A DNA stretch of 64,000 nucleotides. Origin: Escherichia coli. GTDB taxonomy: Bacteria > Pseudomonadota > Gammaproteobacteria > Enterobacterales > Enterobacteriaceae. Numbering within the stretch: the first letter of the stretch is position 1; each line of letters starts with the position of its first letter. The stretch lies in the NCBI RefSeq assembly GCF_017348835.2, contig NZ_CP071375.1. One strand, written 5' to 3'. Of the stretch, positions 21,501 through 24,500 are shown piece by piece. Position numbers: made by a program.

Positions 21501-24500
21501 TCGTCACTCAGGACGTGAAATGATGAAAGAGAAAAAAACATCTCTCAACAATAATGTGAACCGCCCCGGAAATCCTGGAGACTAAACTCCCTGAGAAAGA
21601 GGTAAACAGGATGACTAAAAATACTCGTTTTTCCCCCGAAGTCCGTCAGCGGGCGATTCGTATGGTTCTGGAAAGTCAGGATGAATATGACTCACAGTGG
21701 GCGGCAATTTGTTCCATTGCCCCAAAGATTGGCTGTACGCCGGAGACTCTGCGTGTCTGGGTTCGCCAGCATGAGCGGGATACCGGGAGTGGTGATGGTG
21801 GACTCACCACCGCTGAACGTCAGCGTCTGAAAGAGCTGGAACGTGAAAATCGTGAACTGCGCCGCAGTAACGATATCCTTCGCCAGGCTTCCGCTTATTT
21901 TGCGAAGGCGGAGTTCGACCGCCTCTGGAAAAAATAATGCCACTGCTGGATAAGCTGCGTGAGCAGTACGGGGTCGGACCGGTATGCAGCGAACTGCATA
22001 TTGCCCCGTCAACGTATTACCATTGTCAGCAACAGCGACATCATCCGGATAAACGCAGTGCCCGTGCGCAGCACGATGACTGGCTGAAGAAAGAGATACA
22101 GCGCGTATACGATGAAAATCACCAGGTATACGGTGTGCGTAAAGTCTGGCGTCAGTTGTTACGGGAAGGTATCAGAGTGGCCAGATGCACTGTGGCACGT
22201 CTCATGGCAGTTATGGGACTTGCCGGTGTTCTCCGGGGTAAAAAGGTCCGCACTACCGTCAGCCGGAAAGCCGTTGCCGCATGCGACCGCGTAAACCGTC
22301 AGTTCGTGGCAGAACATCCAGACCAGTTGTGGGTGGCTGATTTTACCTGGGTAAGCACATGGCAGGGCTTCGTTTATGTGGCGTTCATCATTGATGTGTT
22401 CGCCGGATACATCGTGGGATGGCAGGTCTCATCATCCATGGAAACAACATTCGTGCTGGATGCACTGGAGCAGGCGTTGTGGGCCCGTCGGCCGTCCGGC
22501 ACAATCCATCACAGTGATAAAGGTTCTCAGTATGTATCGCTGGCCTACACGCAGCGGCTTAAGGAAGCCGGATTACTGGCATCAACAGGGAGTACTGGCG
22601 ACTCGTATGACAACGCGATGGCGGAGAGCATCAATGGTCTTTACAAAGCGGAGGTAATACACCGTAAGAGCTGGAAAAACCGTGCAGAAGTGGAACTGGC
22701 CACACTCACGTGGGTGGACTGGTATAACAATCGACGATTGCTGGAAAGGCTGGGCCATATTCCTCCGGCAGAAGCAGAAAAAGCTTATTATGCTTCCATC
22801 GGAAATAATGATCTGGCAGCCTGAGTTCACAGATAAAACACTCTCCAGGAAACCCGGGGCGGTTCACTCCGCTACACGGGTAGCGATCTTTGAACGATCC
22901 GCAATAGTTTTAAACCCACCGCCGCCCTGCCTTGCCAGCGTGACGAGCTGCTTACTTAATTTAGACATATCTGTCCTCCTTCACTAAGAAATACAGATCA
23001 AGATCTTCTCCCAAAATAAGGAAACGAGCACGATCTGTATTCTGGATTTTCACACAGAACTGATACATCTGGCCCCGACGGTACGGTTAGGTTTTGCGCT
23101 TCCTGCGTCTCGACTGATATCTGTGCATCGGGGTGACAATATGTTGAGTTTTTACGAGGTTCCCCAGCTCGCAGAGCTGTTCGCGGCGTATGCCGTCCTG
23201 ACGTTAGTCAGACTACCTCCATACGTCAGCTTTCACTGACATTGCCATCGATACCGAGTCGAATTTTCTCCTGAAGTTGATACGTCTGCTCTCATGGTTT
23301 CTCCGTGAATGGATGCGTTCCGTGATAAGACGTTATGGTTAAAAAGTGTGCTTAAAGATGCTATTTCCCCAGTCTGAACACCGTGACTACGTGTGCGTCA
23401 GACTGTACAGAGTGCTGAAAGACCGCATTCCGTCTGCTAAGACGGTGCCCTTTCGCGCAGCGTCACTTGGTATCGCTAACGCGCTTACACAAGTGACGCT
23501 GCACATATCCCGCCGCCAAATGCTGCCCTTGCAGATGCCAAATGTTCCAATTGGCATAGCAACGTGCCGCAAATGTTACCGGGATAAGCTGGACGTAAAT
23601 CCATAGAAAACAGCTTTAAGGATGTCGGGCAAACGTTGTTGCCCTGCGTTGAAGTGTACCTTTATCGCGTTTGCGATCACCGTTCTCAAAGGTTAAACGG
23701 TGTTATCGCCCGAAGGCTTCGTCTCTCAGATTACGACGATTTTGGCTGCGGCCACCCGAAGGCATCAGTCTCAGGCCGCGCTTCTTTCCCTATGATATTG
23801 GCTTGCGATCACCCGAAGGCGCTTCTCTCAAATCGCTGGCACAGTTCCGCTTGCGCTGAAGCATTGGCTGTTGTCGGAGACAACGGTGTAACGCTCGGAG
23901 AATAAAACTTTCTATGAGATCTTTCAATATATTGCTTTAATTTTCAGCATCTATTAATCTCGATTTATAGCGACATTGATAGGGAAATATTAATGGAAGG
24001 CGTAATAAAATGGTTCAGTGAAGAGAAAGGGTACGGATTCATCACTGCCGCGAATAATATAGATTACTATTTTCATGTCAGTGATATAAAAGGCTCATTG
24101 CTTCCTGAAAAGGGGCAAAATGCTCATTTTAATGCAGAATCGACATCTAAGGGCCATAGGGCAAAAAACATTACTCTTACAAAGAGTAATATTGCATCAG
24201 ATAATCGTCTGGATTTTTGCAAAAACTGTAATAAAAAAATCATTCCAAGAATGATTACCCACAGGGGTGAACCACAAAAAACCGTTTGCCCTTACTGTGC
24301 AACAGTAATAAAGAATTTCGATGAGAATTTTTTGTTGAAATTATCACAACCATATTTTATTTTTTCACTTACATGTCAAAAATGCTCTTTGTTTTTATCA
24401 TATGGATATTTAAGACCATAACCACCAAAAGGAAATAACATGCCTGACAAAATTAAACTTGAGATATTTTCAATTGAATACAGGAAAACTATTTTTGATT

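Follow-up and report, generated by a model that had tools for sequence, protein, structure and literature searches.

Why does a copy of IS629 that appears complete lack the short target duplication normally left by its insertion, and why does a small gene beside it run straight into its end and stop there? Both questions are raised by one locus in a stretch of 64,000 nucleotides of Escherichia coli DNA (contig NZ_CP071375.1), which is called the window in the following. A preliminary description had read this locus as the trace of an IS-mediated deletion of adjacent island DNA.

The IS629 element and its termini

The element occupies positions 21557-22866 on the plus strand and represents a complete, 1310-bp copy of IS629 (IS3 family) with the ends TGAAC...GTTCA. 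Its left end, TGAACCGCCCCGG, starts at 21557 and its right end, CCGGGGCGGTTCA, closes at 22866. The terminal inverted repeats, located by inverted-repeat pairing, lie at 21557-21581 and 22842-22866 (plus strand). They are imperfect, pairing over 26 nt with 88% complementarity, and the outermost base of each reported arm (21556-21581 and 22842-22867) belongs to the flank, a chance extension that is not part of the IS.

Two overlapping reading frames are found within the element. The first, orfA (21611-21937, plus strand, 108 aa), contains an HTH_Tnp_1 domain (PF01527, E 2.9e-12), and the second, orfB (21937-22824, plus strand, 295 aa counted from its ATG), carries the DDE core of the rve family (PF00665, E 2.7e-26) together with HTH_21. 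At the overlap of both, the frameshift-stimulating ALIL pseudoknot is detected in full length at 21892-22008 (plus strand; Rfam RF01497, 120.3 bits), and orfB is predicted to be made jointly with orfA by a programmed -1 frameshift. On a near-identical record, PGAP annotates one joined CDS as 'IS3 family transposase, programmed frameshift' and sets no pseudogene mark. Nucleotide identity reaches 99.2% over 1310 of 1310 bp to the copy in phage BP-4795, which served as identity reference and was named IS629 OrfA/OrfB by its depositors, 98.4% to copies in many Stx2a phages and 99.3-99.8% to copies in the chromosomes of O103, O45 and O121 strains. Judged by its sequence, the element at 21557-22866 is an intact IS629.

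IS629 is listed in ISfinder with a length of 1310 bp and a duplication of 3 bp. The triplets flanking the copy in the window are ATG (21554-21556) and CTC (22867-22869), which mismatch at two of three positions, hence no 3-bp duplication is present. The same ends and triplets had been given in the preliminary description, and they are borne out by three independent IS629 copies with identical termini, each exactly 1310 bp in length and each bordered by a perfect 3-bp duplication. These are found in yqiK of strain 2011C-4251 (ACC/ACC), in ydhW of Z1323MEC0002 (ATC/ATC) and in phage BP-4795 (GGT/GGT). Since all three combine the same termini with perfect duplications, the placement of the ends in the window is right, and 3 bp are the normal trace of a simple IS629 insertion. 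Alignment to IS629 copies left the ends unmoved, and no duplication emerged from it. Ends placed one base further out, as the inverted repeat reaches one base into the flanks, were considered as well and rejected: the flanks then read AAT and TCC, again without a repeat. In the literature, the target duplication of IS629 is reported as 3-4 bp (PMC3271280).

Truncated genes on both sides of IS629

The right end of the element abuts the first 34 codons of an ICE integrase-domain gene (22867-22968, minus strand), a gene whose product carries PF12834 and PF12835 in intact relatives. Including its stop codon, the minus-strand ORF extends over 22864-22968; it starts with an ATG at 22968, which is preceded by a GGAGG motif, and its stop codon is supplied by IS629, whose last three bases (22864-22866) read TGA. 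The preliminary description had let this ORF start at 22971. The ORF itself and the translation quoted for it hold, the start codon does not, and the span of 21557-22971 given there resolves into the IS (21557-22866), a stub of 102 nt and 3 surplus bases. The short ORF has clear homologues, as shown by the integrase-domain protein of strain LF82. This protein of 296 aa is composed of Phage_int_SAM_2 (PF12834) followed by Integrase_1 (PF12835), and the stub peptide matches its residues 1-34 at 33 of 34 positions. In line with this, the PGAP label reads 'phage integrase N-terminal domain-containing protein, incomplete, missing C-terminus'. With 34 of 296 residues left, the stub is best classified, from its sequence, as a pseudogene fragment of the PF12834/PF12835 family and not as a functional member.

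The short ORF had also been described as lacking a continuation beyond the IS, which agrees with our finding that the left flank holds a different gene on the plus strand. Here, an ICE SH3-domain gene (21520-21556, plus strand) breaks off at the left end of IS629 after its first 12 codons and one further nt (window MMKEKKTSLNNN, LF82 MMKEKKTSLTNN). This second stub, which appears neither in the preliminary description nor in the annotation, runs on into IS629 as an ORF of 21 aa. The LF82 gene comprises 483 aa (3878-5329 of the LF82 locus, designated L003). Both stub genes face into IS629 and neither picks up again past it.

Breakpoints and content of the deleted segment

In a base-level alignment, homology between the window and the intact ICE ends to the base at the two termini of the IS. 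The left breakpoint, 21556/21557, corresponds to L003 3914/3915 (...CAATAATG / AGAATGAATTC) and the right breakpoint, 22866/22867, to L003 9000/9001 (...TATCCT / CTCCGCTACACG). In the window, TATCCTCTC is followed by the left end of the IS at the left junction, and the right end of the IS is followed by ATGAGAATGAATTC at the right junction. A search for microhomology at both breakpoints yielded chance matches of 3 of 4 bases only.

Among 5426 complete E. coli genomes, the right flank is present in 12 and the left flank in 11, in nine of these in full length. Nine complete genomes, a count that takes in three LF82/NRG857C records, have both flanks on the same strand of one ICE, collinear and with 4613-5549 bp between them. 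The spacing amounts to 4613 bp in MS1170 and MS1266, 4883 bp in Res13-Lact-PER13-34 (Res13 in the following), 5086 bp in LF82 and NRG857C and 5549 bp in IDR1900005638 and Ec1119, a range that is mostly accounted for by 90-bp tandem repeats in the SH3-domain gene. In LF82, the 5086 bp missing from the window (L003 3915-9000) contain what is lacking from the two truncated genes, namely the remainder of the SH3-domain gene and codons 35-296 of the integrase-domain gene. They further encode an ArdC-family protein (PF08401 and PF18818), an antirestriction protein (PF03230), a DUF7706 protein and three small hypothetical proteins.

The 90-bp (30-aa) repeats form an array of variable size, located at 4164-4889 of locus L002 and at 3961-4686 of L003, both from intact ICEs. 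In Res13, the SH3-domain gene is annotated as split or fused ORFs.

As one gene breaks off at codon 12 and the other at codon 34, the missing DNA must formerly have been present, and the remainders of both are found in all nine intact relatives. The earlier proposal of an IS-mediated deletion of adjacent island DNA is thus supported by the collinear flanks in these genomes and by homology stopping at the IS termini. On the strength of these alignments, about 5 kb of an ICE have evidently been lost where the intact IS629 now sits, with breakpoints, size and content of the loss established. This deletion also explains why the target duplication is missing. The competing view, that IS629 was simply inserted and its duplication mutated away, or that its ends are misplaced, into an ICE variant which never had the extra 5 kb, has only the general expectation that duplications can decay in its favor and merits practically no credence. 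The ends are fixed by three reference copies, ATG and CTC differ at two of three positions and two genes are cut exactly at the IS termini, so that the breakpoint alignment together with the reference copies excludes it.

The host ICE remnant and its surroundings

The ICE that hosts IS629 lies at a tRNA-Phe gene, in the window pheV, beside yqgA. Intact relatives encode ICE proteins of the TIGR03756/TIGR03757 families, a conjugative transfer ATPase and traG. What is left in the window is a remnant of about 9.3 kb (17433-26770), bounded on one side by the tRNA-Phe gene (17433-17505) and on the other by a partial repeat of the tRNA-Phe 3' end with a one-base deletion (26717-26770). The tRNA gene is followed by genes for a tyrosine recombinase and a TraI_2 protein and by two hypothetical genes, after which come the SH3-domain stub, IS629 and the integrase-domain stub. 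Beyond the latter, a spacer of about 1 kb that is poor in ORFs leads to a cold-shock-domain gene and two small genes, and these are followed by an inserted IS200C with STnc490 RNA (25586-25709) and a truncated traG (25765-26661), of which 897 of about 1530 bp remain, with 83% identity to LF82. From this gene content, the IS629-associated loss is one of several decay events, and the remnant is no longer self-transferable.

The ORF-poor spacer, which lies directly upstream of the integrase-domain stub, contains two RNA motifs, both as full-length Rfam matches on the minus strand: EFASI at 23111-23262 (RF02957, 86 bits) and STAXI at 23699-23885 (RF01728, 77 bits). STAXI takes its name from the genes that accompany it (Ssb, topoisomerase, antirestriction and XerDC-integrase). 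In the intact ICEs, both motifs precede the operon of antirestriction/integrase type; after the deletion, only the stub of 34 codons follows.

Identity between the ICEs of Res13 and LF82 is 98.8% from the tRNA end to approximately 7.3 kb, then approximately 94.5% and further on 88%, with the switch around L003 7310-7620. This drop indicates mosaic recombination within the ICE family.

Directly past the ICE remnant, an 8937-bp gene (27033-35969, minus strand) encodes a protein of 2978 aa with a TcdA/TcdB catalytic glycosyltransferase domain, which we take to be LifA/Efa1-like. Strain FORC 064 has a matching layout of the remnant region and the 8937-bp gene. On a larger scale, the window joins the pheV side (yggN...speC, yqgA and pheV, in K-12 orientation) to ileX, mug, rpoD and dnaG...ribB in reversed orientation, with the join at about 26770-38808 and the reversed part reaching on to 64000. 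The opposed orientations mean that the pheV-ileX segment of about 105 kb is inverted relative to MG1655, with island DNA at the join. A DUF4942-ileX junction is common to 343 complete genomes; the arrangement is frequent and unrelated to IS629. A candidate for the inversion joint is an IS1 at 36506-37203 beside a truncated DUF5983 gene. IS629 was considered as a junction of this inversion as well and was rejected, because nine genomes have its two flanks within a single ICE, with no change of orientation between them.

Distribution of the junction and search for intermediates

The IS629 junction is found in one of the 5426 complete E. coli genomes, that of strain PE164, a porcine isolate obtained in Nanjing from a diarrhoea case. 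The window differs from the PE164 chromosome by 2 mismatches in 6501 bp. The restriction to a single complete genome marks the deletion as recent and strain-specific. Intermediates, meaning the IS at one junction with a duplication or two direct copies, were sought in the same 5426 genomes and none was detected. When the flanks were searched separately, PE164 remained the only complete genome with an IS at the left or the right site. Exact-pattern scans of metagenome contigs gave 0 matches for the left junction and 0 for the right.

Routes to the present structure

We consider a single IS629 insertion followed by a transposase-dependent adjacent deletion as the preferred route, with a probability of roughly 55%. 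Ancestrally, the ICE would have carried the plus-strand SH3-domain gene at the site of the present IS629 and a minus-strand operon for the integrase-domain protein, a hypothetical protein, the DUF7706 protein, a second hypothetical protein, the antirestriction protein (PF03230), a third hypothetical protein and ArdC. IS629 would then have entered one of the two present junctions with the usual 3-bp duplication. In a second transposase-dependent event at the same copy, all DNA from that IS end to the other junction would have been removed. Such a course would leave IS629 intact between the non-matching flanks ATG and CTC, with two dead gene stubs beside it and the anti-restriction genes of the ICE gone. 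We favor it because fewer events are needed; the number of IS copies (one or two) and the junction that came first are what we infer here. As a precedent, IS629 has been held responsible for many genomic deletions in O157 (PMC9943667). Points against this route are that the searches of complete genomes and metagenome contigs yielded no intermediate, and that IS3-family transposition is described as copy-out-paste-in with a regenerated donor, the mechanism of adjacent deletion being debated (bioRxiv 10.1101/2023.06.07.543989).

An adjacent deletion and a recombination of two direct copies are expected to leave an identical product, and the sequence does not separate them. It is quite plausible, if less probable than the adjacent deletion, that two IS629 copies in the same orientation were inserted independently, one into the SH3-domain gene at codon 13, with ATG as duplication, and one into the integrase-domain gene at codon 34/35, with CTC as duplication, and that RecA-dependent recombination deleted about 5 kb along with one copy. 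The survivor would have its left flank from one copy and its right flank from the other, which predicts the exact structure observed, in which the reference sequence continues up to and including ATG at the left junction and resumes with CTC at the right one. The window itself contains no further IS629 copy that could have been a recombination partner; on the PE164 chromosome, 32 places match a query that contained the window IS629, so that partners may be plentiful. Recombination between IS copies is also a recognised source of absent duplications (PMC11708052), and matching duplications occur at just 21 of 47 IS629 sites in O157 genomes, which is below half (PMC3271280). Against two copies speaks that a recombination would be required on top of two separate insertions within 5 kb of each other, compared with one insertion plus one deletion, and neither of the single insertions was found in any genome searched.

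A variant with two copies places them in two tandem, related ICEs, in which case far more DNA would have been deleted. The identity to Res13, which is about 95% on the left side of the IS and jumps to 99.6% on its right side, fits a hybrid of this kind. However, Res13 itself shifts from LF82-like sequence (98.8%) to 94.5% inside the missing segment. Such a switch points to ordinary mosaicism of the ICE family, and the jump in identity is not peculiar to the IS; as proof of a hybrid of two ICEs it was therefore rejected.

Finally, insertion and deletion might have happened in one step, with IS629 captured at a double-strand break or joined to both ends of a forming deletion, or in an event of the excision enhancer IEE. 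The absence of a duplication and the exact position of both IS termini at the deletion ends would agree with a single step, and an 'IS at the centre of a deletion' has been raised for laboratory events with IS5 and IS481, but all IS3-family (IS150) cases were explicable by two steps (Ngan et al. 2024). Deletions generated beside IS629 by IEE-dependent events range in size from a few nt to over 40 kb (PMC9943667). Such events normally remove the IS and join at microhomologies, whereas in the window the IS is complete and microhomology is absent. Altogether, we regard a one-step origin as improbable. If true, the capture would be a natural IS3-family example of a mechanism proposed from laboratory evolution.

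Relevance and comparison with known systems

That an IS is retained at the edge or in the centre of a deletion and lacks a duplication is already known textbook matter and well documented for IS629. The pseudogene at the right stub had already been flagged in RefSeq, and the deletion now explains this flag. Added here are the precise limits and the gene content of the lost DNA, the truncated gene at the left end, the ICE context and the loss of ArdC and the antirestriction genes. The locus adds one more to the cases in which IS629 has eroded mobile islands, here in an E. coli lineage associated with pigs; it implies no new mechanism or family and has little import beyond annotation.

In length, termini, orfA/orfB organization with the -1 frameshift and ALIL pseudoknot, the window copy is like the IS629 of EHEC O157, O103 and O26 and of Stx phages, with 98.4-99.8% nucleotide identity to the copies found elsewhere. 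It differs from known IS629 in its context alone, as the target duplication is absent. The LF82/NRG857C ICE has the integrase gene, the TraI_2 relaxase-like gene, two hypothetical genes, the cold-shock-domain gene and the N-terminal part of traG in the same order as the remnant and with 83-95% nucleotide identity. In contrast to it, the remnant lacks the 5-kb anti-restriction segment and the transfer genes past the truncated traG, and it contains IS200C. Adjacent deletions by IS629 and IS150, known as small structural polymorphisms in O157 and as IS150-del in the LTEE, likewise leave an intact IS, no duplication and a deletion that starts from the IS end. The deletion of about 5 kb in the window falls within the range of 14 bp to about 49 kb reported for them, and it differs from these cases in that here we infer, rather than observe, which event came first and how many IS copies took part.
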